DNA of 32,162 nucleotides. Origin: Thermoanaerobaculia bacterium (lineage in GTDB: Bacteria > Acidobacteriota > Thermoanaerobaculia > Gp7-AA8). Under the pieces are notes generated by a model. The model was not told the DNA's origin and made no database searches. It worked only from the letters and a program-made list of their open reading frames with translations. Numbering within the stretch: the first letter of the stretch is position 1; the number at the start of each line of letters is the position of its first letter. Position numbers and translations under genes: made by a program. Where the stretch lies: contig DATELS010000659.1 in NCBI GenBank assembly GCA_035276365.1, positions 1-32,162 on the forward strand, read 5' to 3'. This document shows, one piece after another, positions 11,584 to 32,162 of the stretch.

Positions 11584-11586
11584 CGC

Positions 11587-11592: not shown

Positions 11593-11600
11593 CACGCCGA

Positions 11601-12107: not shown

Positions 12108-12142
12108 AGGACGCGGCACATCCATTGCTCTATTCATCAGCG

Positions 12143-12748: not shown

Positions 12749-12827
12749 AGTCTCAAAGTCGTCAAGTCTCAAAGTCTCAAAGATGGTTCTCCTTTGAGAC
12801 TTGAAGACTTTGAGACTTAGAGACTTT
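12749..12827. repeat. AT-rich composite inverted repeat built from AGTCTCAAAG units; predicted long hairpin
   Basis: Forward units at 12749, 12765 and 12773; reverse units CTTTGAGACT at 12792 and 12808. 12749-12774 pairs with 12792-12817 at 25 of 26 positions. The repeat ends 3 nt before the USP ATG. Confidence 0.7.
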
Positions 12828-12829
12828 CG

Positions 12830-13609: not shown

Positions 13610-13610
13610 G

Positions 13611-16436: not shown

Positions 16437-16494
16437 GTCAGCGGATGGGGCTGATTGTACGCCGCGCGTGGTACCGTAACGCCGCGGCGCGCGT

Positions 16495-16569
16495 GCGGGG
16501 TTAGCTCAGCGGTAGAGCATCTCGCTTACACCGAGGGGGTCGGGGGTTCGAATCCCTCACTCCGCACCA
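16495..16569 (+). tRNA. tRNA-Val (anticodon TAC), CCA encoded
   Basis: Hand-folded cloverleaf: acceptor GCGGGGT/ACTCCGC, D stem GCTC/GAGC, anticodon stem TCTCG/CGAGG with loop CTTACAC, T arm GGGGG-TTCGAAT-CCCTC. Confidence 0.9.
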
Positions 16570-16593
16570 GCCTTGCATTAGACTGCCCCGCCA

Positions 16594-16968
16594 ATGCCGT
16601 TTCTCGCGCGCAAACCGCGCCTCCTCCTGCTCGACGACGACCCTTCGATGCAGCGCCTCGTCTCGGCGATGCTGAAGAAGGAAGGCTACCGCGTGGACGT
16701 CGTGTCGTCCGGCGCGCAGGCGATCGAGAACGTCCGCGCGAACGAGTACGACGCGCTGCTCCTCGATGTCATGACGCCGACCGAAGGCGGGCTCACCGTC
16801 ATCCGCTACCTGCGCAAAGCCAACGCGGCGATGCTCAAGCGGATCGTGCTCGTCACCGCGTCACCGCAGTCGGTGCTGCACGCGGTCGAGAAAGAAGTCT
16901 TCGCCATCGTGCACAAGCCGTTCGAAGCCAAAGAGCTCGTCTCGACGGTGAAGCGGATCACTACTTAA
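16594..16968 (+). CDS. Single-domain response regulator (CheY-like receiver)
   Basis: RLLLLDDDP...ALLLDVMTPTEGG...VHKPFEAKEL. Paralogous in layout to the receiver at 2224-2607. Confidence 0.85.
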   Translation: MPFLARKPRLLLLDDDPSMQRLVSAMLKKEGYRVDVVSSGAQAIENVRANEYDALLLDVMTPTEGGLTVIRYLRKANAAMLKRIVLVTASPQSVLHAVEKEVFAIVHKPFEAKELVSTVKRITT

Positions 16969-17343
16969 ATGATGCGACTCAAGCTGACAGTTCTCCCGAA
17001 TCAACTCGCGATCTGCCGTCTGGCCACCGATGCGGCGATGCCGTCGTGGGTGCGCGGCACGTTCGTCTCCGCGACGCGCACGCCTGACGAGCTGTCGCTC
17101 GTCTGCGACGAGGAAGGGATTCCGCGCGAAGTGAACGCGCAGCGCGGCTATCGCGCGATCCAGGTCATGGGTCCGATACCGTTCGAGGCGACCGGCATCG
17201 CGGCGTCACTCGTCGCGCCGCTGGCGCAGGCGAAGATCAGCGTGTTCACGATCGCGACATACGAAACGGATTACGTGCTCGTCAAAGAAGATGTGCTCGA
17301 CGCGGCGATGGACGTGCTGCGCGTCGCGAACGACTTCTTGTAG
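16969..17343 (+). CDS. ACT domain-containing protein
   Basis: The pattern LKLTVLPNQLAICRL...SLVC...IQVMGPIPFEATGIAASLVAPLAQAKISVFTIATYETDYVLV is typical of small ACT_7-like proteins. The ATG directly follows the receiver stop (TAAATG). Confidence 0.65.
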   Translation: MMRLKLTVLPNQLAICRLATDAAMPSWVRGTFVSATRTPDELSLVCDEEGIPREVNAQRGYRAIQVMGPIPFEATGIAASLVAPLAQAKISVFTIATYETDYVLVKEDVLDAAMDVLRVANDFL

Positions 17344-18419
17344 ATCTCGATCACCGACATCAAAAGCGAGAAGACGAGCGGACCGATGACGAGTCCGACG
17401 AAGCCGAACGCCTGCAGGCCGCCGAGGACGGCGAAGAGGAGCGGGATCGCGGGAAGCTGCGCTTTCCCCTTCATCGCCCACGGCCGCACGATGTTGTCGA
17501 TGAGCGACACGGGCAGCAGTCCCCAGATGATGAGGAAGATGGCGCGCCACCACGGACCGTCGCCCGTCGACGCGGAGATGACGAGGTAGATCGAGGCCGG
17601 CACCCACACCGCGGCCGCGCCGACCATCGGCACGAGCGAGAGCAGCGCCGCGACCGCCGCCCAGAACCACGCGCCGGGTACGCCCGCGATCGCGAGTCCG
17701 ATGCCGGTCATCGTCCCCTGCGCGAGCGCGGTGAAGAGCTGTCCGCGAAACGTGGCCTCGATGACGTCGCGCACTTTGTCGGCGAACTCGCGGTCGTAGC
17801 GTTTGGGCAGCGGGGAGAGCACGGAGAGTTGTTCGAGGATGGCCTCGCCTTCCACGTAGAAGAAGAACATGGAGAGGAGCATCAGCGCGAAGCCGAGGAC
17901 CATGCCGGCAAGGCCGCCGATGACGGCGCCGCCGTTGCGCGCGACCCAACCGGGGATGCGCTGCATGGCCGGCAGAACGAGTCGCTCGGGGCTCAATGTC
18001 GCGGGATCGAAGTTCGGTGCGAAGCGGCGGATGAAACTGAGCGAGGAGGAGACGTCGATGCGGCGGATCATCGCCTGCGCCTCGCCGGACTGCAGTTTCT
18101 CGACGACGACGTTGGCTTGCTGGACGAGAAGAATGGAGAGGACGAGCGCCGGGATGACGAGGATGACGGTGATGCCGAGGAGCATGACGACGGCGGCGCG
18201 GTTGGAACTGCCCTTGAGTCTCGCGCGCCATTTTTTGAAGAGGCCGAAGGTGAGCGTCACGAGGATGACCGCGAGCAGGATGGCGGTCATGAAGGGCCAG
18301 AGAATGCGGAACGCGGCGTACAGGAGCACGAGGGCGACGATCGCGAGGAAGATGACTCCCGCGAGCCGCCATTGCGGTCGCTGCTCGAGATCGGATTCGA
18401 TCAGTTGGGGTTCGCTCAC
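17271..18419 (-). CDS. AI-2E family transporter (PerM/UPF0118)
   Basis: About 8 TM segments and family-like length. The GTG start at 18419 is preceded by AGGAGG at 5-nt spacing. The upstream part of track ORF 17271-18884 is not coding. Confidence 0.75.
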   Translation of the reverse strand: MSEPQLIESDLEQRPQWRLAGVIFLAIVALVLLYAAFRILWPFMTAILLAVILVTLTFGLFKKWRARLKGSSNRAAVVMLLGITVILVIPALVLSILLVQQANVVVEKLQSGEAQAMIRRIDVSSSLSFIRRFAPNFDPATLSPERLVLPAMQRIPGWVARNGGAVIGGLAGMVLGFALMLLSMFFFYVEGEAILEQLSVLSPLPKRYDREFADKVRDVIEATFRGQLFTALAQGTMTGIGLAIAGVPGAWFWAAVAALLSLVPMVGAAAVWVPASIYLVISASTGDGPWWRAIFLIIWGLLPVSLIDNIVRPWAMKGKAQLPAIPLLFAVLGGLQAFGFVGLVIGPLVFSLLMSVIEIYKKSFATRSTSIAASSTSSLTST

Positions 18420-18473
18420 ACGTTCCTCCTCGCGCGATGTCGCGTGTACCGCACGTTGTATCATCCGCGCCGC

Positions 18474-19046
18474 TTGAAGGTTCAACCGACTGCGCTTCCC
18501 GACGTTTTGCTGCTCGAGCCGAAGGTGTTCGGCGACGCGCGCGGCTGGTTCATGGAGACGTTCAACGTGGAGTTGTTTCGCTCGCACGGGCTGCCGACGT
18601 CGTTCGAGCAGGACAATCAGTCGCACTCGACGCGCAATGTGGTCCGGGGGCTTCACTACCAGCTCGAGCGTCCGCAGGGAAAGCTGGTGCAGTGCGTACG
18701 CGGCGCGATTCTCGACGTGGCGGTGGACATCCGCCGCGGCTCGCCGACGTTCGGCCGGCACGTTTCCGTCGAGCTGTCGGAAGAAAACCGGCGCATGCTC
18801 TGGATCCCGCCGAAGTTCGCGCACGGCTTCGCGGTGCTGAGCGAGGAAGCGGATGTGCTGTACAAGTGCACGACGCGCTGGCACCAGCCGAGCGATTGTT
18901 CGCTGCTCTGGAACGACCCGGAGCTGGGCATCGACTGGCGCGTCTCGGCTCCCTCGCTCTCCGCGAAAGACGAGACCGGGAAACCGTTGCGCGAGGCGCG
19001 GTTGTTCGAGTACGATGCGCCGCCTTCGGGGAATGGAGTTCGGTGA
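18474..19046 (+). CDS. rfbC: dTDP-4-dehydrorhamnose 3,5-epimerase
   Basis: LPDVLLLEPKVFGDARGWFMETF...RGLHYQ...QGKLVQCVRGAILDVAVDIRRGSPTFG...LWIPPKFAHGF. Start is the TTG at 18474 or the GTG at 18444. Only the 3' third of track ORF 17829-19046 is real. Confidence 0.9.
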   Translation: MKVQPTALPDVLLLEPKVFGDARGWFMETFNVELFRSHGLPTSFEQDNQSHSTRNVVRGLHYQLERPQGKLVQCVRGAILDVAVDIRRGSPTFGRHVSVELSEENRRMLWIPPKFAHGFAVLSEEADVLYKCTTRWHQPSDCSLLWNDPELGIDWRVSAPSLSAKDETGKPLREARLFEYDAPPSGNGVR

Positions 19047-19074
19047 CCCGAGGTTAGCAAGGATTCTTCAACCG

Positions 19075-19151
19075 GGGCGGTAGTTCAGCCGGTTAGAACG
19101 CCGGCCTGTCACGCCGGAGGTCGCGGGTTCGAGCCCCGTCCGCCCCGCCAA
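19075..19151 (+). tRNA. tRNA-Asp (anticodon GTC), CCA encoded
   Basis: Hand-folded cloverleaf: acceptor GGGGCGG/CCGCCCC, D stem GTTC/GAAC, anticodon stem CCGGC/GCCGG with loop CTGTCAC, T arm GCGGG-TTCGAGC-CCCGT. Confidence 0.9.
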
Positions 19152-19162
19152 AAAGCTCTCAT

Positions 19163-19187
19163 GCGCCGCCGGAAGGCGGCGTTTTTT
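19163..19187 (+). terminator. Intrinsic terminator after tRNA-Asp
   Basis: Stem CGCCGCC, loop GGAA, stem GGCGGCG, followed by TTTTTT. Confidence 0.75.
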
Positions 19188-19203
19188 GTGTCCCTCCGTA
19201 GAA

Positions 19204-19465
19204 ATGGAGATCGAGATGCAGCCGGCCGCCCTGGCGTCAGCGGCCACCGCCACCCGTCTCACCATCTACCATTGCGACGCCAACTTCAACCAGGCCGTCG
19301 GCGCCCAATTCACCGTCTGGTGGTCGTGCACGACCGACTGGCCGTCCTGGGGCACGACGTCCATTTTCAAGGGAGTTCATCGCCAATTGGGATGACTGCG
19401 AGTCCGGCACGCAGACGAGGACCTGCTGGACATACAACAGTGCTGCGGAACATGGACACAGGTGA
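19204..19465 (+). pseudogene. Possible frameshifted small Cys/Trp-rich protein gene
   Basis: GGAG lies upstream of the ATGs at 19204 and 19216. MEIEMQPAALASAATATRLTIYHCDANFNQAVGAQFTVWWSCTTDWPSWGTTS has high GC3. The coding-like signal continues in the +1 frame (FIANWDDCESGTQTRTCWTYNSAAEHGHR*) after about 19370. Confidence 0.3.
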
Positions 19466-19570
19466 ACTGCCCATAGATGAAGAAACACAAGTGCGCCGTA
19501 CGCAACAAGCACTCGACTCTCTCCAACTGGATACTGCCGATCGACAATTTCTTTCGAATTACCTGCGACC

Positions 19571-19622
19571 CCCGGCCTGTCATGTGCCGGAGGTCACGGC
19601 TTCGAGCTCTGTCCGCCCGCCA
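19571..19622 (+). repeat. Degenerate copy of the tRNA-Asp 3' half (att copy 2)
   Basis: CCCGGCCTGTCATGTGCCGGAGGTCACGGCTTCGAGCTCTGTCCGCCCGCCA aligns to the anticodon-arm-to-CCA part of the intact tRNA, with a 2-nt insertion and several substitutions. It is followed by AAAGCTCTCA and a hairpin at 19639-19657. Confidence 0.75.
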
Positions 19623-19860
19623 ATCTAAAGCTCTCACCAGCCGCCACTTTGGTGGCTCTTGCGTATATTAGTGCGTTGCGTTAGAAAGTTGTAACTCGCA
19701 AGCTGACTCGCAAGGTCGCGATTCTCTGGGACGCGAAAACCTGCGTGGAAACAGCTTCGCAAAGTGCGTGATGTTTCACGTTTCGGCGTGAATGTTCCAC
19801 GGAAAATGGGCGCCGACCCCATGCAGCCCAACGAGCCGGTGATCGGCGGCGGAACGGCCG
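19623..19860 (+). repeat. Conserved non-coding left-arm module, copy A (homologous to 26162-26345)
   Basis: Shared blocks: CTAAAG.T.TCACCAGCCGCCA hairpin; ACTCGCAAG direct repeats at 19694 and 19706 plus GACTCGCAAGGTCGCGA; TTTCGGCGTGAATGTTCCACGGAAAATGGGCGCCGAC at 19781-19817. Confidence 0.65.
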
Positions 19861-20355
19861 CCGGAGGTGATGGGTGGAAGAACGCGCAAACGCGTGCTTC
19901 CGCCTTGGTTAGCGATAATGGCGTGCACTCGCTGTTCTGTAGCCCTCCCCTATCCTGGAAGAAATAGTAGTCGTAAAGGGCGGGTAGGGATGTCCTCTTA
20001 GCAAACGGCGATCGCCGTGCGGTTCACCGCGGGCACCCGACCGAGCGCGTATCATAACGTCCACGCTGATAAGAAACTCTTCCTTGCACGAGAGCTCGTA
20101 CACGATCATGTTTCCCCGTTACGGCACGTTCGCAGACACCATCGCCGCGTCATGGAAGCGCCTAGCCATCGAGTCTCCGCGCGACGTGTGGCACATGATC
20201 GTGTTGGCGACACGAGCGAGCTCGCCGTGCGCGCGTTGCGCAGCGCGGCGTCACGAATTCGTCCCGTCCTACGTCGACTTGCTCACGCGCGTGACTTCGC
20301 GGCGCGCCGATCGACACGCACTGGATTACGTATCTCGACGCCAAGGGCATGCTCG

Positions 20356-23004
20356 ATGAGATGGTGGAGATCGTCGCGCGGCGAAGTGACGCGACATCTG
20401 CTTTTGGCGGTCGCAATAGCCGCGCTTTCGTGCCGCGGGCCGGTCGGAAAGCGCGATTCAGCAGGCTCGCCTGTCGATCGATTCCAAGCCGTCGAGGCGG
20501 CTGAGCGCGCATGGCGGCATCAGAAGACCGTGGACAATGCGGCGATGCGCGGCCGCGCACTGGAGTCAATACCGCTCCCGACGGCTGCGGCGAGCGCGTG
20601 GCTGGATGCGGGCGACACCAGGCGCGCCGCAGCGCTGACGCGGCCGACGCATCGGATGCGATGGGCACGCTGGCGCGACTCGTCGCGTGAGCTCGACGTC
20701 ACGATTGTTCGCGACTTCGCGCAGGAGTTGCGCATGTACGGCGAGGACGAACTGCTCGACGCGTGGGCACGGAACGGAGACGGGGCCTCGCTGACCGAAG
20801 CGGAACGGATCGGGAACGCTCTCGCGGCGGCGGGCGGCGACGCGCTCCTTGCGGATGCTACACGCATTCTTCGGCAGGCAAAAAACGCTCACGCCCTCGC
20901 CGAGGCACACCTACTTTATGCGCGTGGCCGGCGAAGCTACTCACGCCAGCAGATGACCCGAGCAATCAAGGAGCTTCACGCGGCAGAAACGCTTTTTTCC
21001 GCAGAACAAAGTCCATTCGCTTTCCGCGCCGCAATGTACGAAGCGACCGCCGCTTACTACGCGGCGCGCTATGACGACGCGCTTCGGAAGCTCGAGTCCA
21101 TTCCGTTGATTGAGAGGTACCCGGTCCTGTTCGGGCAGGTGCAGTGGGTGATCGGCCTGATCACTTTCTCCCGCGGACTGACGAACGAAGCGCTTGCGGC
21201 TTACAAGAGATCTTTTGCTGCCTTCGAACGCGCCGGAGAAACCGAAAGTCGTGCCGGAGTTGAAGCGTTGCTCGCGCAAACTTACCGTGTTGTCGGACAG
21301 GATGAGATCTCTGCGGAGTATCAGCGTCGAGCACTCACATCATTGGCGATCATTGGTAGCAGCCGGCGGAGCCACGCCATCCTTACCGATGCCGCGCGCG
21401 CCGCAGCATTACAAGGAGCGCCGCTTACGGCTCTCATCTTTCAAGAACGCGTCGTCACTCTTGCGCGACTGTCGAAGGATCCGGTATCGATCGCTGACGC
21501 GCTCATCGGGTACGCCGTGTATGCGGCGGCCGCCGGCGAGCGCGCGCAGGCCACGACCACGCTCGGCGAAGCGCGGCGAGCCGTCGCTGCTGTTTCTGAT
21601 TCAGCCATGCGCGACCGCTCCGTGGCGAACCTCATGGCGGCTGAAGCCACCGTGCTGCGTACATTCGACCCGGCGAGCGCGGCTACGGCGGCCGAAACGG
21701 CGATCGCGCATATGCAACGGCTCGGTCACCGGATTCGCCTCGTGCAACTTCACCTTGAGGCAGGGCGCGCGCTCGATCGCATCGCACGTCCAATCGACGC
21801 TCTTCGGCATTGGGAAGAGGGCATCACGGAATGCGAGCGCCAGCGTGACGACCTCACGGATGATGAATACAGGCGGACATATTTCGAAACGTGCCATTCG
21901 CTCTTCGAAGAGGCGATAGGCGCTCTGATCACGCGAAGGGAATGGGTACGGGCGCTGCGGCTCGCGGAACGAGGTCGCGCCCGATCCCTGTTGGACATGG
22001 TGATGAGGCGATCGCAGGCTGCATCGCCCCGCATGATCGCGCCGCGTGGAGTGTCGATCGTCGAGTATTCAGTGTTGCCTCACCGTCTCGTAACTTGGGT
22101 GGTGAACAGCAACCGTGTCTTCGTCGTGTCGCGAGCGATCGACCGCGATGCGCTGCGTCGTGAAATTGGCTCGCTCGCCGCTGCCCGGGCGAACGATCCC
22201 ACCTCTGCAAAGCGCGTTCATGAACTCTTGCTCGAGCCTGTGCGCGAACAACTTGCGCATCGTGTGATCTTCATCCCGGATGATCACATCTACCGCGCGC
22301 CGTTCGCCGCGTTGCAGGATGCGAACGGGCACTTCCTGGTCGAGCAACATGAGATTTCAATCGCGCCCAGCCTGACATTGCTCGATGCAATTCCGCCTGC
22401 GATACGGGGTGCGCCTCTTGCCGTGTTGATCGGCGCGACCAGCGGAACTGCCCGTCACCCATCCTTGGCTGCAGCGGCCCGCGAGATCCGGAGTCTCCTG
22501 TCGATTTACCCGGAGGCGGTCGTCGTCGAAGGGAAGAATGTCACGCGTGCGAATGCAGTGGAAGCGATGGGGCGTGGTTCGCTGATCCACTTCGCCGGCC
22601 ACGCCATCGAGGCCGCAGAAACCGTCGATCCAGCTCTCGTCCTCTACAACGAATTGCTCTATCCGCGGGACATTGCTGGCCTAACACTCAAGCAAACCAG
22701 ACTCGTAGTTCTCGGCGCTTGCGGAACCTCGGACGGTCGTATCGGCAGCGAAGGGCCCCTGAGCATAGGCCGTTCGTTTCTCGCTGCCGGCGCACGGCAG
22801 GTTCTCGCTACACTGTGGGCGATTGAAGACAATCGCTCCTCCCGATTGCTTGTGAATTTCCATAGGATGCTGGCACGTTACCCGCGCGCCGCGGCAGCAC
22901 TCCGCGAAGTGCAGATTCAGGCGATCCGCAGCGGAGCGACGGTTTCAGACTGGTCCGCTTTCGAAATACTTCAAACCACTTCTGACGAGGAGGCGTACGA
23001 ATGA
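20356..23004 (+). CDS. TPR-repeat CHAT-domain (caspase-like) protease, paralog 1, with N-terminal hydrophobic signal or anchor
   Basis: The C-terminal CHAT region has catalytic-dyad contexts LIHFAGHA and LVVLGACGTS. The central region is TPR-like. The N-terminus MRWWRSSRGEVTRHLLLAVAIAALSC is signal-like. Start is the ATG at 20356 or the GTG at 20386; the track start at 20017 gives an Arg-rich, non-protein-like extension. Confidence 0.85.
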   Translation: MRWWRSSRGEVTRHLLLAVAIAALSCRGPVGKRDSAGSPVDRFQAVEAAERAWRHQKTVDNAAMRGRALESIPLPTAAASAWLDAGDTRRAAALTRPTHRMRWARWRDSSRELDVTIVRDFAQELRMYGEDELLDAWARNGDGASLTEAERIGNALAAAGGDALLADATRILRQAKNAHALAEAHLLYARGRRSYSRQQMTRAIKELHAAETLFSAEQSPFAFRAAMYEATAAYYAARYDDALRKLESIPLIERYPVLFGQVQWVIGLITFSRGLTNEALAAYKRSFAAFERAGETESRAGVEALLAQTYRVVGQDEISAEYQRRALTSLAIIGSSRRSHAILTDAARAAALQGAPLTALIFQERVVTLARLSKDPVSIADALIGYAVYAAAAGERAQATTTLGEARRAVAAVSDSAMRDRSVANLMAAEATVLRTFDPASAATAAETAIAHMQRLGHRIRLVQLHLEAGRALDRIARPIDALRHWEEGITECERQRDDLTDDEYRRTYFETCHSLFEEAIGALITRREWVRALRLAERGRARSLLDMVMRRSQAASPRMIAPRGVSIVEYSVLPHRLVTWVVNSNRVFVVSRAIDRDALRREIGSLAAARANDPTSAKRVHELLLEPVREQLAHRVIFIPDDHIYRAPFAALQDANGHFLVEQHEISIAPSLTLLDAIPPAIRGAPLAVLIGATSGTARHPSLAAAAREIRSLLSIYPEAVVVEGKNVTRANAVEAMGRGSLIHFAGHAIEAAETVDPALVLYNELLYPRDIAGLTLKQTRLVVLGACGTSDGRIGSEGPLSIGRSFLAAGARQVLATLWAIEDNRSSRLLVNFHRMLARYPRAAAALREVQIQAIRSGATVSDWSAFEILQTTSDEEAYE

Positions 23005-23903
23005 GTGAGATCACGGTCGTCCTTTCCGGCATCGTCCTTTTGGTCTCGTCGAATGCGTATCTGACGACGGGCGGCAGCAACGCCATCAGCTCCGCGATCG
23101 CCGTTGAGGCGCGAACGCCCATCGACAGCGCCTACGACATAGACATTCCCGTCCACAACGCGATGTTGACCTTCCTGAAAGCGGATGTGGACGGAGGCGC
23201 AACCATTGACCCTGACAAGAGGCTTGAGCCCGCCAAAGAGGGAGATTCTCACGAAGGCGTTGACCTGATCGTGCTGCAGCTTCGCGGTGATCGTGTCCAG
23301 CTCGGCACGGGCGGCGCGGTCTGCGGTGGCTTACCCGCCTCAACGACGAACGCCCGCGACTCGTTGCAGACGCTGCCAAGACTCAGCGAAATTGTTCGGC
23401 CGGACGTGACACTGCGTTCCGGCACCTTTCCCGTCGGCACGAACTTCACGGGAATGGATAAAAGCCGCGTGGCGGCGTGGCTCGACATTCGGGGCGGACA
23501 TCTCCGGGCTACACACACAGAGGATGAACGCCCACGCTATGAGGAGGTGGAGTTCCGGCCTACGCGACGTCGTGCTCGAATTTCGCCACACGTGCTCTGG
23601 ACCGCCCCGGCGGGAGTAGATTGCGTCGTTGTCACACCGTTCGCCGCTGGAGGGAAAATGATCAAGATCGTTCTGAATCCTGATCGGGACATCCGCATCG
23701 GCTTTCACAACATGGCGGACATGTCGACGGGCGAGCTCGTACCGGGCATTGCGTACGACTTCGAGCTGTTCTATCGCCTCATCAACAATTCACCCGTTAT
23801 TCCTCCCCTCCCTTACACCTTGGCAGAAATCGAAATCGAGACGGGAGGTCCGGGTCCCGACGGCCTCACGGGCGTAAATTGCGGGCCGCCGCGTGTCCGT
23901 TAG
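23001..23903 (+). CDS. Hypothetical 300-aa protein translationally coupled to CHAT paralog 1
   Basis: The ATG overlaps the CHAT stop (ATGA at 23001-23004). GAGGAGG lies 7 nt upstream. The composition is protein-like, and I recognise no domain. Confidence 0.7.
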   Translation: MSEITVVLSGIVLLVSSNAYLTTGGSNAISSAIAVEARTPIDSAYDIDIPVHNAMLTFLKADVDGGATIDPDKRLEPAKEGDSHEGVDLIVLQLRGDRVQLGTGGAVCGGLPASTTNARDSLQTLPRLSEIVRPDVTLRSGTFPVGTNFTGMDKSRVAAWLDIRGGHLRATHTEDERPRYEEVEFRPTRRRARISPHVLWTAPAGVDCVVVTPFAAGGKMIKIVLNPDRDIRIGFHNMADMSTGELVPGIAYDFELFYRLINNSPVIPPLPYTLAEIEIETGGPGPDGLTGVNCGPPRVR

Positions 23904-24288
23904 GCCGCCTGCCTTCCACCAGTCGCAGCAGCGTGAACATGATTATCTCTGCAGCAAATCGCGCGCCGACGTTCGTGTCTCACTCCAGTCTCGCCAGCGG
24001 AACCGGTGAGCGCGCGATACACGCATAACGTCACGAAAGGCTGGCAGGTTGGGCAAGCGCGTAGTTGAGCATCGCTAGCGACATAGACGCGTAGTGCCGG
24101 CGTGTCTTGGCCGCCAGCAATTCGACCTCGTCGAGCAGCCGGCGCGCATTTGCGTATCGTCCGCGCGATGATCTCGTGCGGTTGGGAGGCTCACGGGTGA
24201 ACGGGTGAATGATCTGAATTTGGCGCCGAATGAGAGGTTGCGGTCGACGGCCTCGTAGGCCCCCCGGGGCGAAAAGGAGACCTTCCAC

Positions 24289-24329
24289 GCGCCGCTCACT
24301 CAGCCAAGTGAGCCGGTCGTGAGCGGCGC
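24289..24329 (-). terminator. Possible terminator hairpin downstream of the minus-strand operon
   Basis: An 11-bp perfect inverted repeat, GCGCCGCTCAC and GTGAGCGGCGC, with a 19-nt loop. It lies 25 nt past the stop at 24354, and the T-tract is only weak. Confidence 0.3.
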
Positions 24330-24353
24330 GCTAATGCACGACTTACAGGAGGC

Positions 24354-25367
24354 TTACTCGAAGAGCCTATAGACCAGGCCTGCAAGGAGCTGTTTGTCGT
24401 ATTCGAACCCGAGGTCTTCGCCTGTGCGATACCGAATAACGAATCCAATCTTCTTATCCGGCTGCATCATCTTGAGCGCTATGTCGGCATGGAACTCAAT
24501 GTCGCGATCGTCGCCCTTCATCGGCTTGCCAGCCTTGAGGTCTACGGAAATGGAGTACGGAAATGCCGGACGTTTCGGACAGGGCTTAGTGGGGTCGCAA
24601 AGGAACGCCTTGAAGTCCCGAATGAATTTGCGGCCGGCCGCGCGGTCCGTCGCAATCGACAACGGGATCTCGGCAGTGAAAGCGAGTTGAATTTGATCGA
24701 TTGCGATCGTCTTGTCCGAGGCGGCAGGATTCTTCGTGTCGTTGTCGACGAATGCGTTGTAATAGGTCAGAGCGAGCATCGGGTTTTCGACGTCGGCTCC
24801 CGTAATCCCTTTGAGGGCCATCAGTGCTGGAATCTGGAAAACGACCTTCGTGCCGAGGCCCCCGATCAGTACACCTTTCCAGTCCGCGTCATCGTTTTTG
24901 GCGATGTCGGCGAAGCGTCCGCGCGCCTCAGCGAACGGAATCAGATCAAACCCGGTCCTGCCCTCGCCGAGCTCGCAGCTGCCGAACGGATCGAAATCGT
25001 CTTCGACGAGTTTAATGGTTGCGAGCTCCACTCCCAGATCCGCGACCCGATCCTTGTCGTCGGCATAACTGAACTGTCCATTGAGCTTGTAGTCGACATA
25101 CGGCGTCCAGCCTGCGTCGATGTCGCCCCCGCTGTTCCAAAGCAGATCGCTTCCTTTGACAACGAGCGCCTCCGTGCCAACTTCAACGTCGAACGGTGTC
25201 GATTCACCGCTGGGAATGTCCGCTTTCTCGAGTAGGCCGCATTCTGCTGCCTTGTCCGTGTTGTTTATCGTCGTGTCTTTCTTAGTGTCTGTCTTCGTTT
25301 CCTGTGCCCAGCCGGGGGCCGTGAGAAGGGCCGCCAGGACGGTGACACTCACAATTCGTGCGCGCAT
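24354..25367 (-). CDS. Secreted beta-rich hypothetical protein (possible outer-membrane protein)
   Basis: AGGAG lies 5 nt before the ATG at 25367. Signal peptide MRARIVSVTVLAALLTAPGWA/QE. Alternating hydrophobic strands run towards the C-terminus (IGFVIRYRTGE, LLAGLVYRLFE), and there are four Cys. Confidence 0.7.
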   Translation of the reverse strand: MRARIVSVTVLAALLTAPGWAQETKTDTKKDTTINNTDKAAECGLLEKADIPSGESTPFDVEVGTEALVVKGSDLLWNSGGDIDAGWTPYVDYKLNGQFSYADDKDRVADLGVELATIKLVEDDFDPFGSCELGEGRTGFDLIPFAEARGRFADIAKNDDADWKGVLIGGLGTKVVFQIPALMALKGITGADVENPMLALTYYNAFVDNDTKNPAASDKTIAIDQIQLAFTAEIPLSIATDRAAGRKFIRDFKAFLCDPTKPCPKRPAFPYSISVDLKAGKPMKGDDRDIEFHADIALKMMQPDKKIGFVIRYRTGEDLGFEYDKQLLAGLVYRLFE

Positions 25368-25375
25368 AGGCACTC

Positions 25376-25780
25376 CTAGTAGAGAGCTTTGATGTCGGTT
25401 TCGTCGAGGCCGAGAGCCGACGCGAAGAACATGGCCGAGTCGAAATCGTCCAGCCTGCCGCCAGCGCTCATCAGGTCGGCATCGCTCGAATCACCAATAC
25501 TCTGCGCTTGGGACAAAACGAGAGGTTTCATGTGTGAAAACAGGAATCCGGCGTATTGACGGACTTTCTGGATGCCGGCCGCACGAAGCTCCGCGGGATG
25601 TGCCGTCTGCCATGAAATGCCTTCCTTGAGCAGCCGGTTCGGCAGGAACTTGTTCATCAACCCGGCCTCTCGCACCCATTCGTGCGGCTCATCGAGTTCC
25701 TGGGCAATAGGGTCGTCGGGCATCTTCTTCCAGCGAGCTACCGCCAGACGCATCGCGATCACCTTCGGGTCTGTCGCCAT
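25376..25780 (-). CDS. Hypothetical 134-aa cytosolic protein, first gene of the minus-strand pair
   Basis: Strong SD (AAAGGAGAACACTATG). The stop lies 8 nt from the next gene's ATG. No recognisable domain. Confidence 0.65.
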   Translation of the reverse strand: MATDPKVIAMRLAVARWKKMPDDPIAQELDEPHEWVREAGLMNKFLPNRLLKEGISWQTAHPAELRAAGIQKVRQYAGFLFSHMKPLVLSQAQSIGDSSDADLMSAGGRLDDFDSAMFFASALGLDETDIKALY

Positions 25781-26097
25781 AGTGTTCTCCTTTCAGGGAA
25801 GTGAGAGGGCCACGAACTGCAAATTCCCCGCGCTTCCTCGATCGTCGACCGCTCTGTTCGACGACGCCCCTACCTCGGCCGACGGAACCGGGCGACGCGG
25901 AAGCGAAAGGAGGAGGCGATGGAGACGTCCGACGGCACGAGGAGCGATCGTTCGGTAGAACGAGCGATCAGACCGCAAAGTGACACGCTCAGCTGCGTGC
26001 TTCGCGGGGCAACTGCAGCGGTAAGGCCTGCAGCCGATGCCAGTAGCGCTCGCGAAAATGCCCGGCGCGAGCGCGCCCCTCACCCCACCGCAAGCAC

Positions 26098-26161
26098 CAG
26101 CGGTTAGAACGCGCGCCTGTCACGCCGGAGGTCGCGGGTTCGAGCCCCGTCGGCCCCGCCA
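26098..26161 (+). repeat. Partial copy of tRNA-Asp, D-loop to CCA (att copy 3)
   Basis: CAGCGGTTAGAACGCGCGCCTGTCACGCCGGAGGTCGCGGGTTCGAGCCCCGTCGGCCCCGCCA differs from the intact gene by 1 gap and 3 substitutions, with a perfect run of more than 30 nt. It lacks the 5' acceptor strand, and its anticodon stem is disrupted. Confidence 0.85.
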
Positions 26162-26345
26162 AACTAAAGTTTTCACCAGCCGCCAATTCGGCGGCTTTCG
26201 TGTTTTGTGGCGGATCGCAAGAAATCGCAGACTCGCAAGGTCGCGAGTTTCGCCAGCGGAAATTTGCGCAGGCCCGCGACCAGAAGGCAAAAGTTAAGCA
26301 TTTCGGCGTGAGTGGTCCACGGAAAAAGTGCGCCGACGAAGCGGC
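26162..26345 (+). repeat. Conserved non-coding left-arm module, copy B (homologous to 19623-19860)
   Basis: Hairpin AGCCGCC-AATTC-GGCGGCT with a T-rich tail. ATCGCAAG, ATCGCAG and ACTCGCAAG repeats at 26214-26239 plus GGTCGCGA. TTTCGGCGTGAGTGGTCCACGGAAAAAGTGCGCCGAC at 26301-26337. Confidence 0.65.
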
Positions 26346-26523
26346 GGCCGACGATTGGCGGCGGTGGAACAGTGGCTGGCGTGCTGCGACAGAGCGTGAC
26401 GCTAACGCGCGCTGCACGTCCCCAACACGAGATCGGCGGGCGACCGTGCGTCACGACTCCATCAGGTCGACGAAGTGCACGTCGTCGTTCGTGACTTTCC
26501 GTTACATCGACTAGCCCAAAGGG

Positions 26524-27231
26524 TTGTTTGCTGCGCAATGTCGGACCGCTGGCTGCAACGAGCAAATAAGCACGCTCCTCGATGCGGTGCATAAGCCTGC
26601 CGCCCCACACGATGAAGGCTCATTTTTCGGCGCCTTGCTCGACGTGCGCTTTGGGCCGGAGGGACTGAGGGATCACGTCGTCGCTATCCTCAATCGGCTA
26701 AAAGATCGCCAGATACACGACACCGACCATGCCCTCTTTGATGCTCTGTGTTATGTCGCCGCCTGTCATGCCGTCGGCATCACTGGCATCAATGAGAAAG
26801 TCCTCGCGGATCTAGTCAATATTCCTAACGGCTGGGTGCAAACACGGGTTGTGAATCCACTGGGCGAAGAAGCTGCAGCCGTTCGAAGCGCGGCACACGT
26901 AGTAACGCGTCACAGTAAAGTAGCTCGCGCGATCCTAGTTGCCGCCGAAAAGGATCTTGGTCCTGATATCGCAGAAATCTGGAGCTGCATAGTTCGCCAA
27001 ACCGCACGAACCGCGAAGAATGGCGGAGTCAGCCATGAGACTCATTCGAAGGTTCTCCACGCAGGCGCAAAATTGCAACGCGCCCTGCCGCAGCAGTTTA
27101 CTGAGCATCGTCGTAAGGAAATCGCCGTTGCGGCAGCAACGGCATCAATCGCAGCCGAACCCGATCGGCTTTCCCGCATTGTTGATCTTAGTAAAACCTA
27201 TCGAAACGCAAGGGATTACACCGCTGAATAG
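26524..27231 (+). pseudogene. Fragment of a larger gene of unknown function; no ATG start
   Basis: The ORF opens with TTG and has no SD. It is followed 2 nt later by a second ORF in another frame, and G+C is lower. The helical, protein-like sequence reads like an internal or C-terminal part of a large protein. Confidence 0.4.
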
Positions 27232-27233
27232 AG

Positions 27234-27656
27234 GTGTTTCGCCAAAATCTTGCCAACCTTCCGTCGAGAATCGATTACCATTCGATCGTGCGAGGCTATT
27301 GGTATGAGTGGGGAGTGGCCGAGGGCGCAGCGGGAGACAGCGTTGCTCAGCGCGCCGCCGGCATATGGCTGCAAGGCCTCTCGCTCGCCGACCACCTAAG
27401 TACTGCCCCGATCACGATAGAAGATACCGGCATAGTTGTGCTGGCCTTGGGCTCGCATTCGGAAAACTCGCACGACCGAACTGTCCCTTCGCGCTCGCTC
27501 GGCGAGCCGCTTCGTATCTGGGCCGCGTTCCAGGTATGGGTTCGACTGCCAATTATTATCCTAAAGCGGCAAACTTTCTTGATACGCATGACACCGAAGC
27601 GGATAGGATCGACACGTCGCGCCCGAAAGATATTGACTAGGCGATCGGCTGGTTAA
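27234..27656 (+). pseudogene. Second fragment, probably continuous with 26524-27231 before a frameshift or stop
   Basis: The first half is protein-like (RIDYHSIVRGYWYEWGVAEGAAGDSVAQRAAGIWLQGLSLADHL). The second half degenerates into basic, low-quality sequence. Confidence 0.35.
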
Positions 27657-27732
27657 CATCGGCTGTAGTGCAATCGCACGGCGATCTAAGAGACACATTC
27701 CTCAAGCGACTGCTCCACCCGCGGACGTCTCC

Positions 27733-28263
27733 TTGATGATGCTACGCGAATTCTTTCCCATCGCGTCGAGAGTTTCACCCGCTAGCCTCCGACCTGTCAG
27801 CGCGACTGCTACGAAGAAAACCCTATTCGAATTTCGGAGTGACTTCGATGCACGGATTCATGCGGGCATTCAGCGGGTTTTGGCGAAGGCATGGCAGGCT
27901 GTGCCCGACCCTATGGCGGAGGAAGACCGTTTCAAGATCGCCAAACGAAATGCGCAAGACGAAATCGCGAGGTTGTCACCAAGCATCAAACGACAGGCGG
28001 AGCGTATTTCGAAACGCAGAAGTGGGAACCGCTTAAAGTGCCCAGTCAAACCGACGAAGGTGCCGCGTCATAAGACCGGGCATCGCGCCCGAAAAGCTAC
28101 CTGCTTCCAGCACGTCCAACGCCTGTCGAGCCATGAACCCGTGACAAATACCATGACCAGTTCAACGCTATTGACACAGCCCGAACTGGCGGCGACATGC
28201 GACTCTCTGCGCCAACGCGGACGGGATCGCGATCCGGCCACGCGTGCATTAGCGCAGTGTTAG
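27733..28263 (+). CDS. Questionable hypothetical ORF (176 aa) running into att copy 4
   Basis: TTG start, basic low-complexity middle, no recognisable domain. It may be non-coding or degraded. Confidence 0.2.
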   Translation: MMMLREFFPIASRVSPASLRPVSATATKKTLFEFRSDFDARIHAGIQRVLAKAWQAVPDPMAEEDRFKIAKRNAQDEIARLSPSIKRQAERISKRRSGNRLKCPVKPTKVPRHKTGHRARKATCFQHVQRLSSHEPVTNTMTSSTLLTQPELAATCDSLRQRGRDRDPATRALAQC

Positions 28264-28316
28264 ACCTGCGGCCTGTCACGCCGGAGGTCGCGGGTTCAAG
28301 CTGGTCCGCCGCGCCA
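28259..28316 (+). repeat. Partial copy of the tRNA-Asp 3' half (att copy 4)
   Basis: GTTAGACCTGCGGCCTGTCACGCCGGAGGTCGCGGGTTCAAGCTGGTCCGCCGCGCCA has a 28-nt perfect run (GGCCTGTCACGCCGGAGGTCGCGGGTTC) shared with the intact tRNA. The T-arm and acceptor are diverged. Confidence 0.8.
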
Positions 28317-28331
28317 AACTTCGCACTTGAT

Positions 28332-28361
28332 GCGCCGCCGAAAAGGCGGCGTTTTGTTTTT
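28332..28361 (+). terminator. Intrinsic terminator homologous to the one after the intact tRNA-Asp
   Basis: Stem CGCCGCC, loop GAAAA, stem GGCGGCG, followed by TTTTGTTTTT. ATGCGCCGCCG.AA.GGCGGCGTTTT is shared with 19161-19187. Confidence 0.75.
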
Positions 28362-28416: not shown

Positions 28417-31413
28417 ATGTTCGCGCTCCTCGCCATCCTCGGCGTCCTGCACGCAACGCCGGGGCCGCAGCGCGATGGCGTTGTCACCGCGTTTCTCGAC
28501 AGCCTCGCTGGCGCGAGTACCGATCCCCTCCTCCCCATCGCCTCGCCGGACGCGCTCGCGCTGCGCGATTGGCAACTTCTGCGCGCCGATCTCGAAACCT
28601 ACTCCTGCGTGACGATCCATCGTTCCGTCGTGACGGAAGCGCTGCGGACGGAGAACGAAGTCTCGTATGTCATCACCGTCGACGCGACGGGGATCGCGCG
28701 GGGCGCCGGGCATCGACCGTTGCGCGTGCCGAGCCGGTGGCACGTCGACGCCGTCCGCAACGCCGACGGCTGGCGGTTCCGCCGCGCGCTCCTCGGCTAC
28801 CGCGTCACCGCGCGGCAGTACATGAAAGAGCGCGATTGGACGCAGGAGCAGATCGAAGTCGTGGGCGGCGCGGAGCTCGAAGGCCTCTTGAAGACGATGG
28901 CCGATGAGCTGTCCGATCACGCCGAGCGCTTCATTCCGCAGATCGAGACACTGCGTGCGATCGCGCGCCGTCGCGGCCTCGCTCACGCCGACGTTTTCAC
29001 GACGCGCATGCTCTCCGTCGCCGCGCTGGCCTGGGGCAAGTCGCAGCAGGCGCGCGACTACGCGGAGGAAGCCTACGAGCTCGCAGAACAAACCGGAGAC
29101 GCCGACGATCTCGCCACCGTCGGCTTGACCCTCGGCACCACGCGATGGGTCGCGGGCGCCAACGACGCAGCGGATGCCTATCGCTGGTCCGCGTCGCTCA
29201 TGGATGTCGCCGACGATCCGCGCGCTTCGATGAAAGCGATGTACATGCACGGACTGCTCTTGATCTCGCACGGAGCGGTGCGCGGCGCAGTCGCGTCATT
29301 CAATGATCTCGCCGCGGCGGCGGAACGCTTCGATTGGACGGAGGGGCGATCGATCGCGGCGACGCAACTGTTCGCCGCGTATGAGGCCGTGCGCGAGACC
29401 GCGGGTGCACGCGGCGCCGCGCGTGATGCGCTCCATTACGCGGAGCGCCTGCACAACGAGCGCATGATCTCGATCGCCCGCTACAACCTCGCGATGGCGG
29501 AGTACGCGAGCGGCGATCGGGAAGCCGCGTCGGCGTTGATGACGATGCTCGCGGCGAGCAAGACCGCGACTCCCGCGGCGGCCGGGGCCGCGCGCCATCA
29601 ACTCGCGGAGATGTTGCTGCAAAGCGGCAAGATCGCGGAAGCGGACGCCGAGCTCACGCGCGCGCTCGAGGTGTCCCGCACTTCGCAAGACGTTCGGCTC
29701 ATCGCGTCGGTTTTGGATTCGATCGCACGTCTGAATCTGCAAGCCGGACGGCCCGAAGAGGCATTGCGCGTCGCCGACGAGGCCGAGGCGGTGCTGCGCA
29801 GCAAGCCGTCGGCCGTGGGCATGATGGGCATCGATCCGACGTGGAGCGTGCTCGCAACACGCGGCCGAGCATTGCGGCGCACGGGGCGCGTCGCGGACGC
29901 GCTGCTCGCGCTACAAATGTCGGTCGAACGCGTCGAGGCGCGGCGCGCGGAGATCGAAGCGGACGAGCTGACGCTCGCCTCGTTCATGCAGGACAAAGCC
30001 ACGCCGTATCGCGAGCTCGCGTCGCTGCTCATCGAGCAGGGACGCGTTCCCGAAGCCCTCATCATCGCCGAGCGTCTCCGCGCCCGCGCCCTCGGCACCT
30101 CCGTCGCGCGCGGCGGCGTCGAGCGTCTGCCGCCGATGTCCGCAGCGGACAAGAAGCGCTATGACGCGCTCAACGCCGCCATCGCGGAGCTGAATCTGAA
30201 GCTGCTCGCACATCGCGACGACTCGCTGCGCCGCACACTGCAAGAGCAGCGGCTCGAGCTGCGCGCATTCCTGTTCACGCTGTACGCGCAGCGGCCGGAG
30301 CTGAGCGCGCGCCGCGCGGAAGATCCGCAGATCGTGCTGGACGACCCGCACCGCCTCCTCCCCGACCGGGCGGAGGCGCTGCTGACGTTCACCGTGCATG
30401 ACGACGAGACGTTCGCGTTCTTCATCGAGCGACACGGCGAGCAGCTCGACGTCACGGTGCGCCGCGTGCGCGTGCGGCGCGATGCGCTCGAGCGCCAGGT
30501 CGACGAGCTCGTGTCGGCGATCGGACGACGCAGCCTCGACTATCGCCGCGGCGCACGCGCGTTGTACGACCTTCTCGTGGCCGGGTTCGAGCCGCGCAGG
30601 CGCGCGAAGAAGCTGTTGACGATCGTCCCGGACGGCGTTCTGTGGCGGCTTCCCTTCCAGACGTTGCTGCGACCCGATGGCGAGCCGTTGGTGACGCGAG
30701 TGGCGATTGCATACGCGCCGTCGCTCGCGCTACTGCGCGCGGAGCGACACGAACCGCATGCATCGCCCGATCTGCGACTGCTGGCCGTTGCCGATCCCTC
30801 CGTGCCGCACGCGACGCAGACGGCGGCGCGCACTCTCGCCGGCGCCGCGCGACTGACGCCGCTTCCCGATGCGCGGCGCGAGGTACGCGAGATCGCGGCG
30901 TTGTACGACAACCGCAGCCGCGTCCTGATCGGCGCCGATGCTTCGGAGGCGGCAGTGAAGCGGCAGCTCGGCGACGCGCGCATTCTCCACCTCGCGACGC
31001 ACGGCCTCATCGACGATGCGTCGCCGATGCATTCGGCGGTCGTGCTCAACGCCACCGGCGCGGACGACGGATTGCTCGAAGCGCGCGAGATCCTCGAGCT
31101 CGGACTGAGCGCCGACCTGGCCATCCTCTCCACGTGCGAATCGGCGCGCGGCGGCTTGAGTCCGGGCGAAGGCATGATCGGACTCTCGTGGGCACTGATG
31201 GTGGCGGGATGCCGCAACACGATGGTGAGCCATTGGAAAGTGGCGTCGCGCAGCACCGCCGATCTGATGATCGCGTTTCATCGAGCGCTGAAGCGTCCCG
31301 GCGCGACGTACGCGTCCGCGCTGCGCGAGGCGCAACTGGCGATGCTGCGCACGAACGAGTTTCGCCATCCGTTCTACTGGTCGCCGTTCGTCCTGATCAC
31401 GACTTCCCAGTAG
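28417..31413 (+). CDS. TPR-repeat CHAT-domain (caspase-like) protease, paralog 2
   Basis: The 998-aa ORF has a hydrophobic N-terminus MFALLAILGVLHA and a long TPR-like middle. The CHAT region has ILHLATHG and LAILSTCESARG dyad contexts and a C-terminal FYWSPFVL. G+C matches the core genome. Confidence 0.85.
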   Translation: MFALLAILGVLHATPGPQRDGVVTAFLDSLAGASTDPLLPIASPDALALRDWQLLRADLETYSCVTIHRSVVTEALRTENEVSYVITVDATGIARGAGHRPLRVPSRWHVDAVRNADGWRFRRALLGYRVTARQYMKERDWTQEQIEVVGGAELEGLLKTMADELSDHAERFIPQIETLRAIARRRGLAHADVFTTRMLSVAALAWGKSQQARDYAEEAYELAEQTGDADDLATVGLTLGTTRWVAGANDAADAYRWSASLMDVADDPRASMKAMYMHGLLLISHGAVRGAVASFNDLAAAAERFDWTEGRSIAATQLFAAYEAVRETAGARGAARDALHYAERLHNERMISIARYNLAMAEYASGDREAASALMTMLAASKTATPAAAGAARHQLAEMLLQSGKIAEADAELTRALEVSRTSQDVRLIASVLDSIARLNLQAGRPEEALRVADEAEAVLRSKPSAVGMMGIDPTWSVLATRGRALRRTGRVADALLALQMSVERVEARRAEIEADELTLASFMQDKATPYRELASLLIEQGRVPEALIIAERLRARALGTSVARGGVERLPPMSAADKKRYDALNAAIAELNLKLLAHRDDSLRRTLQEQRLELRAFLFTLYAQRPELSARRAEDPQIVLDDPHRLLPDRAEALLTFTVHDDETFAFFIERHGEQLDVTVRRVRVRRDALERQVDELVSAIGRRSLDYRRGARALYDLLVAGFEPRRRAKKLLTIVPDGVLWRLPFQTLLRPDGEPLVTRVAIAYAPSLALLRAERHEPHASPDLRLLAVADPSVPHATQTAARTLAGAARLTPLPDARREVREIAALYDNRSRVLIGADASEAAVKRQLGDARILHLATHGLIDDASPMHSAVVLNATGADDGLLEAREILELGLSADLAILSTCESARGGLSPGEGMIGLSWALMVAGCRNTMVSHWKVASRSTADLMIAFHRALKRPGATYASALREAQLAMLRTNEFRHPFYWSPFVLITTSQ

Positions 31414-32162
31414 TGCGCGCGAGGATCGCCTTCGCGTCGCGGTTCCCCTCCGCCGCCGCCTTGCGCAGCGCTGCCTCCGCCTCTTTCCGCAGACCCGCCG
31501 CGGCATAGACAACGGCGTGCAACAGCGGATCGTCGGGATGCGCGCGCAGCGCGGCGTCGATGTTCTGCTCGTCCTCCACCGACGTGATGCGAAACAACGC
31601 CTGCGGCTCATCGGCGCGCGGTAGCACTTCCTCCCCGGCGTCCGTGTGGACATCCACCTCCCATGCGTACGTCCGCCCCCGTGCAAGCGGACGCGTGGGA
31701 GTCCAGTACGGCACGTGCAGCGGCTTGCTGTGGAGGACGTCCTCGTCTCCCGAGTCGATGATGACGACGTACGTCGCGCCGGCGCGCGCGGTCCAGGTCA
31801 GGCGCGGCTGGGCGTCGCGGATCACACGTCCGACTGGATCGAGGGACGCGCGTGGAGCGTCGGTGGTATCGCGCAGCGTATCGGCGGCGGGAGTCAGCTC
31901 GGCAAGCGTCGGAGGAAACGGCAACGCCTTCTGTGCAATCGCGGCGGCGACCATTCGTTGCCACGTTGGACTGGCGTACGTTCGCAATGGCGTCTTCGGC
32001 ACAGGACGATGAACGACGACACGCGGTGCCGCGGGCGGCGGTTCGGGACGGCGGTAGAGCACAACCACGCAGACAATCAGGAGCGCCGCGGCAGCAGCGG
32101 GAAAGGCCCATCGCCATTGTGGCGGCCTCGGCGCCGGCAGAGCGCGTCGGGTCGCGCGGAGA
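31397..32162 (-). CDS. Single-pass membrane protein (anti-sigma-factor-like topology), partial; 5' end outside the window
   Basis: The reading frame stays open upstream of the track start at 32068 through ...PQWRWAFPAAAAALLIVCVVVLYRRPEPPP (a TM helix) to the window edge. The extracytoplasmic part has a beta-rich region and a C-terminal TPR-like helix pair. It overlaps the CHAT2 3' end by 17 nt, convergently. Confidence 0.6.
   Translation of the reverse strand, partial: LRATRRALPAPRPPQWRWAFPAAAAALLIVCVVVLYRRPEPPPAAPRVVVHRPVPKTPLRTYASPTWQRMVAAAIAQKALPFPPTLAELTPAADTLRDTTDAPRASLDPVGRVIRDAQPRLTWTARAGATYVVIIDSGDEDVLHSKPLHVPYWTPTRPLARGRTYAWEVDVHTDAGEEVLPRADEPQALFRITSVEDEQNIDAALRAHPDDPLLHAVVYAAAGLRKEAEAALRKAAAEGNRDAKAILARTTGKS

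Follow-up and report, generated by a model that had tools for sequence, protein, structure and literature searches.

The region downstream of the intact tRNA-Asp(GTC) gene on contig DATELS010000659.1 from a Thermoanaerobaculia bacterium (Acidobacteriota; assembly GCA_035276365.1) is interpreted here as a tandem array of three decayed integrative elements that share a single target gene, are delimited by four copies of an attachment (att) site, lack integrase genes and are similar to cis-mobilizable elements (CIMEs). We assign this interpretation a probability of roughly 85%. The complete stretch of 32,162 nucleotides that was analyzed is referred to as the window, and loci from other assemblies are designated by L numbers. 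The islands belong to a tRNA-Asp-specific element family in Thermoanaerobaculia. Evidence is provided by repeats of the tRNA 3' part, shared arms behind these repeats, a compositional shift, a break of synteny, integrase-bearing relatives at the same site and scars of lost genes; what we infer from it is where the crossover took place, in which order the events occurred and that the array is now immobile. Serial integration into the tRNA 3' end had already been proposed in a preliminary description of the window, and this proposal is borne out by the shared arms, which recur at tRNA-Asp in eight independent loci of other Acidobacteriota assemblies, the symE-integrase architecture of L023, the synteny break relative to L010 and the variable filling of the site.

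The tRNA-Asp gene, its 3' copies and the site in relatives

ARAGORN recognized one intact tRNA-Asp gene (71 bits with Rfam family RF00005), a tRNA-Val gene at positions 16495-16569 and no other tRNA in the region of the array. When the tRNA and its terminator (positions 19074-19195) were compared with the whole window by BLASTN, the three downstream copies of the tRNA 3' part that had been reported before were all retrieved (Table 1). They are direct repeats on the plus strand and without exception lack the tRNA 5' part. Copy 2 matches at 19572-19645 with 81% identity (E 1e-13), copy 3 at 26101-26163 with 95% identity over 63 nt corresponding to tRNA positions 17-79 (E 9e-25), and copy 4 is identical in 29 of 29 nt at 28269-28297 and extends to 28259-28355, terminator included, at 82% (E 1e-20). 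The longest exact runs shared with the tRNA amount to 37 nt in copy 3 and 29 nt in copy 4, in keeping with the 37 and about 28 nt given originally, and to 11 nt in copy 2, which is far more degenerate than had been implied and carries a 2-nt insertion in the anticodon loop as well as a 1-nt deletion. Copies 1, 3 and 4 still have a core of at least 27 nt in common without a single mismatch, and visible damage is restricted to copy 2. The array is likely, as was first suggested, to be fossilized.

Terminator-like hairpins are located 3' of copy 1, copy 3 (26178-26196) and copy 4. As noticed earlier, the hairpin behind copy 4 is homologous to that behind the intact gene (92% identity over 26 nt). 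The acceptor stem reads GGGGCGG/CCGCCCC in the window tRNA-Asp and GGGGTCG/CGGCCCC in all relatives examined. This includes a compensated change at pair 6:67, G6:C67 in the window versus C6:G67 in the relatives, by which host and foreign tRNA 3' halves can be distinguished. Base 67 is the host-type C in copies 2 and 4 and a G, the type of the other lineages, in copy 3.

The enclosed 9.2 kb, previously judged by eye to be lower in G+C, do indeed deviate in composition. The G+C content of positions 19151-28316 is 0.601 (0.584, 0.609 and 0.570 for islands 1, 2 and 3, respectively) compared with 0.649 in the left flank (0.624-0.678 in 2-kb windows) and 0.685 in the right flank, and tetranucleotide distances to the flank profile amount to 0.28-0.41 inside vs. 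0.12-0.21 outside. Both shifts are limited to 19.1-28.3 kb; the CHAT part at about 20-22.5 kb has a G+C content of 0.62-0.64, marginally under that of the left flank. No further tRNA-Asp fragment occurs in the adjoining 6 kb beyond the right end of the window.

Positions 9231-19150 of the window are collinear with L010 at 68-82% DNA identity, the common genes being those for tRNA-Val, a response regulator, an AI-2E transporter, rmlC and tRNA-Asp, and homology ends at tRNA-Asp. The content of the rmlC-tRNA-Asp site differs among L010, L018, L023 and L019-L021, a comparison made between species and not within one. In L019-L021, tRNA-Asp is followed by the terminator and a gene for an M16 peptidase, and because no tRNA fragment occurs within 10 kb, these loci are candidate empty sites, albeit in different species. 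Arrays similar to that of the window were encountered in L007 with two and in L009 with three copies.

Table 1. Features of the tRNA-Asp array and its right flank (positions refer to the window)
Feature	Position	Strand	Remarks
Intact tRNA-Asp(GTC), copy 1	19074-19150	+	Putative attL-type junction: chromosomal 5' part and element-supplied 3' part
Intrinsic terminator of tRNA-Asp	19163-19182	+	8-bp G+C-rich stem followed by T-run (terminator scan)
Island 1, 421-nt remnant	19151-19571	.	Between copies 1 and 2; G+C 0.584
Open reading frame (ORF) of 59 aa in island 1	19216-19395		Sole gene call of island 1
Copy 2, tRNA 3' part	19572-19622	+	tRNA positions ~28-77; BLASTN; degenerate
Arm of element 2 (putative P' arm)	19623-19898	+	Terminator hairpin, ACTCGCAAG direct repeats, conserved block TTTCGGCGTGAATGTTCCACGGAAAA
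Island 2 cargo, CHAT-domain protein, 819 aa	20545-23004	+	PF12770, E 1.7e-46; ORF open from 20017
Island 2 cargo, 300 aa	23001-23903	+	Start overlaps CHAT stop codon; ORF and gene call
Integrase N-terminal-domain scar	24049-24153	-	~35 codons; tBLASTN
Island 2 cargo, three genes of 339, 134 and 96 aa	24354-25373, 25376-25780, 25793-26083	-	ORFs and gene calls
Copy 3, tRNA 3' part	26101-26161	+	tRNA positions 17-77; BLASTN; carries G67
Arm of element 3 (putative P' arm)	26162-26438	+	Minus-strand terminator-like site at inner end, 26346-26331
Scar, 3' end of symE-like gene	26454-26494	-	41 nt; DNA and protein match to L002
Rest of island 3	26495-28258	.	G+C 0.57
Island 3 ORFs without gene call	26524-27231, 27234-27656		No known family
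Island 3 called gene	27736-28263	+	No known family
Copy 4, tRNA 3' part	28259-28316	+	Putative attR-type junction; core 28269-28297 perfect; T-arm and acceptor part decayed; C67
Terminator after copy 4	28332-28352	+	Homologous to terminator of intact gene; terminator scan
Right-flank TPR-CHAT gene, 998 aa	28417-31413	+	Outside the islands; PF12770, E 3e-67

Conserved arms, integrase genes and scars

The sequences behind copies 2 and 3, said in the preliminary description to resemble each other, are homologous (19575-19817 vs. 26115-26337, 70% identity over 244 nt, E 1e-17). A pattern of two blocks common to both flanks retrieved one metagenome contig of the Joint Genome Institute (JGI), L002, and a second pattern six stretches in GTDB genomes, all of them Acidobacteriota metagenome-assembled genomes (Thermoanaerobaculia, 'gp7') and one a duplicate of L002. 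The conserved segment, termed the arm, adjoins tRNA-Asp or its fragment in L002/L005 (duplicates), L003, L004, L006, L007, L008 and L023. It lies directly 3' of the intact tRNA-Asp in L003, L006, L007 and L023 and of a tRNA-Asp 3' fragment in L002/L005 and L008, and is only partial in L004. Over 180-357 nt, the window arms are 72-86% identical to the arms of these Acidobacteriota loci: the arm of element 2 shares 80% identity with L002 (332 nt), 85% with L003 (247 nt) and 79% with L023 (283 nt), that of element 3 75% with L002 (357 nt) and 83% with L007 (240 nt). In phage and plasmid collections the tRNA fragment was the sole match, and a scan of viral contigs for the arm gave 0 matches.

Three components make up the arm: a terminator hairpin, which in L006 is preserved through compensatory changes; ACTCGCAAG in two or three directly repeated copies; and an invariant block, TTTCGGCGTGA-TG-TCCACGGAAAA. 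The inner end of the copy-3 arm features a minus-strand terminator-like hairpin with a T-run, and inspection by eye revealed different hairpins at this point in other loci; with terminator-like sites at both arm ends, the conserved 130 nt are enclosed by a convergent pair of terminators. Judged by this organization, the conserved arm may represent the protein-binding P' arm of attP. In the window as a whole, ACTCGCAAG is not enriched (8 matches vs. 11 expected).

Other functions considered for the arm were rejected. A known RNA is not apparent, as Rfam at E<=1 matched the tRNA alone between 18.5 and 29 kb, and neither is a new structured RNA, RNAalifold analysis of seven arms having given a covariation term of -0.5 kcal/mol with the terminator hairpin alone convincingly kept. 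For small ORFs starting from the conserved block (19764-19967 and 26312-26494), the protein is not conserved and indels between the copies are not multiples of three. A separate observation concerns L003, where a DDE_5 transposase gene (4749-5537) comes after a tRNA-Asp fragment and the first part of an arm (4109-4205); this arm appears to be interrupted by an insertion sequence.

Behind the arm of L002, a SymE_toxin-family gene (581-1033; 35.1 bits with PF08845 at a cut-off of 29) and the C-terminal part of an integrase-like protein are encoded on the opposite strand. The latter returned 62 homologues (P0001-P0062), mostly from Thermoanaerobaculia and all between 80 and 252 aa in length. On the 1.58-Mb contig L023, rmlC, tRNA-Asp, an arm that is 85% identical to that of L002 over 385 nt, a symE-like gene and an integrase (residues 4-445, in three reading frames) follow each other and precede a helix-turn-helix (HTH) gene and cargo with HATPase, SMODS and phosphoribosyltransferase genes. 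In L018, rmlC and tRNA-Asp are succeeded by a full-length integrase of 446 aa that matches both halves of the family, and then by HTH, DUF433 and TIR genes. The three-copy array of L009 consists of tRNA-Asp, with a truncated integrase at a distance of 73 nt, and two more tRNA-Asp fragments downstream, and in L010 a truncated integrase adjoins a tRNA-Asp fragment. Frameshifted family members reside beside tRNA-Arg(CCG) in L012 (8799-8875) and L013 (8747-8823), which indicates that target specificity has shifted within the integrase family. The truncation of the L009 and L010 integrases is situated immediately upstream of the motif EREQAAWN, where those of L012/L013 have their frameshift; the short and frameshifted homologues could reflect recurrent decay or a hot spot.

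Four of nine members of the integrase family match PF00589, the best with an E value of 4.5e-7. With respect to the catalytic residues R, K, H-x-x-R, H/W and Y, an alignment read by eye shows LMRPKN, FRHTGAS and MMGDT..RHY to be compatible with Arg, Arg and Tyr, whereas both His residues have apparently been replaced by F and D. The family is probably a divergent tyrosine recombinase.

The earlier statement that no integrase is recognizable in the array holds insofar as a six-frame Pfam scan of 19152-28316 at E<=1 detected neither a recombinase nor a transposase and CHAT as the sole domain, but it overlooked two scars. The 35-codon scar in island 2 is 59% identical over 32 aa to the N-terminal part of the L012 integrase (tBLASTN, E 6e-7 against the window) and 49% identical to residues 152-186 of the L018 integrase. 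The symE scar in island 3 shares 80% DNA identity with L002 over 41 nt and, at the protein level, 64% identity with the SymE-like protein of L002 over its 14 C-terminal aa. Both have the expected orientation on the minus strand, and for the integrase scar the strand as well as the order of arm and integrase agree with L023. In island 2, symE and the larger part of the integrase gene would have given way to the CHAT operon. Further candidate integrase remnants at 23220-23405 (tBLASTN E ~18) are not collinear and were taken as chance matches.

Proposed history and competing explanations

According to our interpretation, each element would once have carried a divergent tyrosine integrase and an attP site in which a tRNA copy that began in the D-loop or the anticodon stem and reached the 3' end was combined with a terminator. 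A crossover within the anticodon stem-loop would have split the tRNA gene; tRNA and terminator would have been restored by the copy that the element brought, and the displaced 3' part would have remained at the distal end. The stack of elements would have grown as further integrations hit either the regenerated gene or a displaced fragment, and later deletions would have removed the symE-integrase modules such that arms, two short scars and cargo remained. The fragments of the window and of six other loci have uninterrupted identity in common only from about position 31 on, where the anticodon loop starts. In the window, L002, L003, L007, L009 and L010, unbroken tRNA identity begins no later than this point, and the parts to the left vary between loci. 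This starting point fits the anticodon-centered attP class of Islander (PMC4383910).

The diagnostic base 67 bears on the order of events. G67 indicates that copy 3 and its arm derive from an element adapted to another lineage: it pairs with C6 of the relatives and would mismatch G6 of the host. As entry into the functional gene would give a G6-G67 mismatch, the copy-3 element probably entered the displaced fragment (attR) instead, an event that resembles the accretion onto CIMEs described in PMC5704250. Copy 4, with its host-type C67 and decayed T-arm, fits the displaced ancestral 3' end.

A number of points weigh against this reconstruction. Recombination itself was not observed. The terminator after the intact gene is closer to the copy-4 terminator than to those of the arms, whereas the simplest model expects an element-type flank at this position; element 1 mimicking the native terminator, or gene conversion, could account for the discrepancy. 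An empty site is not proven in any relative of the same species, L019-L021 stemming from other species with other downstream genes. The closest orthologue of the right-flank CHAT gene, in L015 (73% identity, homology to the window from 28401 on), lacks a tRNA fragment in the 224 bases upstream and is preceded by another gene, so that ancestral adjacency of this gene is unproven; the earlier claim that copy 4 keeps the ancestral flank is nevertheless plausible in view of its C67. Regarding the enzyme, the L018 integrase reaches 20.2 bits with PF00589 (model positions 18-170 of 172), below the gathering cut-off of 27.1, a search of PDB sequences with the integrase profile yielded 0 matches, and the AlphaFold2 model of family member P0024 is poor with a pLDDT (predicted local distance difference test) of 43.

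Instead of being immobile, the islands could still move as integrase-less cassettes of tRNA 3' half, arm and cargo, excised and transferred in a CIME-like manner by an integrase of the family that is encoded elsewhere or arrives with an incoming element. Such a scenario is in line with the perfect core of copies 1, 3 and 4, with the conservation of the arm across loci that harbor unrelated cargo, and with arm homology stopping at the same block, about 190 nt in, in L003, L004, L006, L007 and L008. L007 in addition contains a 6-kb island with arm and displaced fragment, among the two large ORFs of which an integrase was not found, and accretion as well as cis-mobilization of such elements are documented (PMC5704250). 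We nevertheless consider continued mobility unlikely, as copy 2 is damaged in the presumed crossover region, the T-arm of copy 4 is decayed, and the shared end point of the arm coincides with the minus-strand terminator-like site, which explains it without any role in recombination. Moreover, the right ends of the islands show no enrichment of ACTCGCAAG repeats, and neither a circular junction nor a helper integrase was seen, although a read-level search for junctions was not made. In a wider and still more doubtful version, the tRNA-Asp 3' half and the arm of about 190 nt would form a portable attachment module with which an integrase acting in trans shuffles cargo cassettes, an integron- or CIME-like platform in Thermoanaerobaculia.

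Alternatively, the arm might be the native flank downstream of tRNA-Asp, and the copies might have arisen by duplication or homologous recombination of tRNA plus flank and not by site-specific integration. The loci in which the arm directly follows the intact gene would agree with this, as would the first ~60 nt of the arm, i.e., the terminator, which also occur behind the tRNA in L018 and L019-L021. However, arm positions 60-190 are missing from L009, L010 and L018, no arm but a plain terminator comes after the last fragment of the window and of L007, the two window arms are merely 70% identical, and in L002 and L023 the arm is linked to symE and integrase, all of which renders a native flank very improbable.

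Tandem tRNA genes are common and the sequence is of metagenomic origin, yet decayed tandem duplicates of tRNA-Asp or a chimeric assembly are hardly credible, given that every copy lacks the 5' part and starts in the same region, that composition shifts and integrase and symE scars are present, that exact repeats of at most 37 nt are far below the k=141 of the contig name, which makes a join at the repeats unlikely, that the differently ended ENA contig k141_884325 matches the window over 13.7 kb with 1 mismatch, and that the independent assemblies L007, L009 and L010 contain comparable arrays.

Cargo, known counterparts and significance

Apart from the CHAT protein, the products of the island genes have no match in Pfam, PADLOC, PHROGs or NCBIfam, and the cargo as a whole yielded at most weak CHAT-related matches in the latter three. 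Genes for integration and transfer were not detected in the islands with the same collections, the six-frame Pfam scan included. With 27% identity to the right-flank CHAT protein, the island CHAT protein is not a recent duplicate of the latter. Related tRNA-Asp islands carry genes for TIR-STAND (L004, 4762-7200), TIR (L018, 14144-15334) and HATPase plus SMODS-like proteins (L023, 2429-5315). Genes of these types are typical of anti-phage defence islands.

Outside the array, two convergent genes come after the right-flank TPR-CHAT gene (28417-32162 region). The same three-gene layout is found in a distant relative (34% identity; L016, 10001-14918), where one partner contains a zf-HC2 anti-sigma-like domain, and the three genes may constitute a conserved CHAT module; a scan of GTDB genomes with the right-flank CHAT protein returned no match. 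In the left part of the window, two paralogous minus-strand genes at 6560-7024 and 8887-9351 (71% identity over 470 nt) are adjacent to each other, and the L010 counterpart of the second has MshEN and T2SSE domains, which identifies it as a GspE/PilB-type ATPase. An intergenic palindrome of 81 nt (12747-12827), built from tandem AAGTCTCA-like units and their complement, forms a long hairpin between two plus-strand ORFs.

In several respects the array conforms to the islands in tRNA genes collected by Islander (PMC4383910). A regenerated tRNA gene and direct displaced 3' fragments, three in the present case, mark the ends, the block of identity starts in the anticodon region and extends as far as the 3' end, the cargo is accessory, the composition is foreign and presence at the same site varies (L010, L018, L023, L019-L021). 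Tandem arrays at one tRNA gene are known: among 3919 islands, Islander lists 125 tandems of two or more and 4 of three or more (PMC4383910), and the decay and accretion of such islands have been reviewed (PMC5704250). In contrast to the Islander collection, in which an integrase is required per island, none of the three window islands keeps an integrase, the 35-codon scar in island 2 being all that is left, and the Islander filter would thus reject them. Further differences are the divergence of the relatives' integrase, reflected in its weak PF00589 score, and the host, an uncultured Thermoanaerobaculia lineage.

A second point of reference is provided by the CIMEs and their tandem accretion among ICESt1-type elements of Streptococcus thermophilus (Pavlovic 2004; Bellanger 2011, as cited in PMC5704250). 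As far as they are portrayed there, CIMEs share with the window islands the loss of integration genes, the retention of attL and attR (with copy 2 degenerate in the window) and tandem stacking at the 3' end of the target gene. An origin by deletion from an integrase-bearing element is likewise indicated here, by the scars and by arms homologous to that of the L023 element. Unlike the ICESt1-type CIMEs as presented in that source, the parent elements show no conjugation or mobilization genes, the target is a tRNA gene and the att site of copy 2 is damaged. By analogy, the array can be described as resembling CIMEs.

In attP sites of the lambda type, a long non-coding arm with short direct repeats, the arm-type binding sites, separates the core from the integrase gene. 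The elements described here have a comparable non-coding arm between core and integrase gene, with two or three ACTCGCAAG repeats as putative counterparts of these sites. They differ from the lambda type in that the opposite arm yielded no ACTCGCAAG repeats and the elements no excisionase.

Islands in tRNA genes are an ordinary and well-known route of foreign DNA into bacterial genomes, and tandem islands of this kind and their decay are already well documented. The array does not change any concept. What it documents is an integration hot spot at tRNA-Asp and, for the Thermoanaerobaculia, a class of uncultured soil Acidobacteriota, a family of integrative elements that had not been described before. 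Its members unite a symE-like gene and a putative divergent tyrosine integrase with a conserved arm and with cargo of the accessory or defence type, i.e., CHAT, TIR, STAND and SMODS proteins and peptidases. Island annotation can profit from the description of this family, given that finders relying on integrases would overlook such elements, and it provides candidate attP and attB sites for Acidobacteriota.

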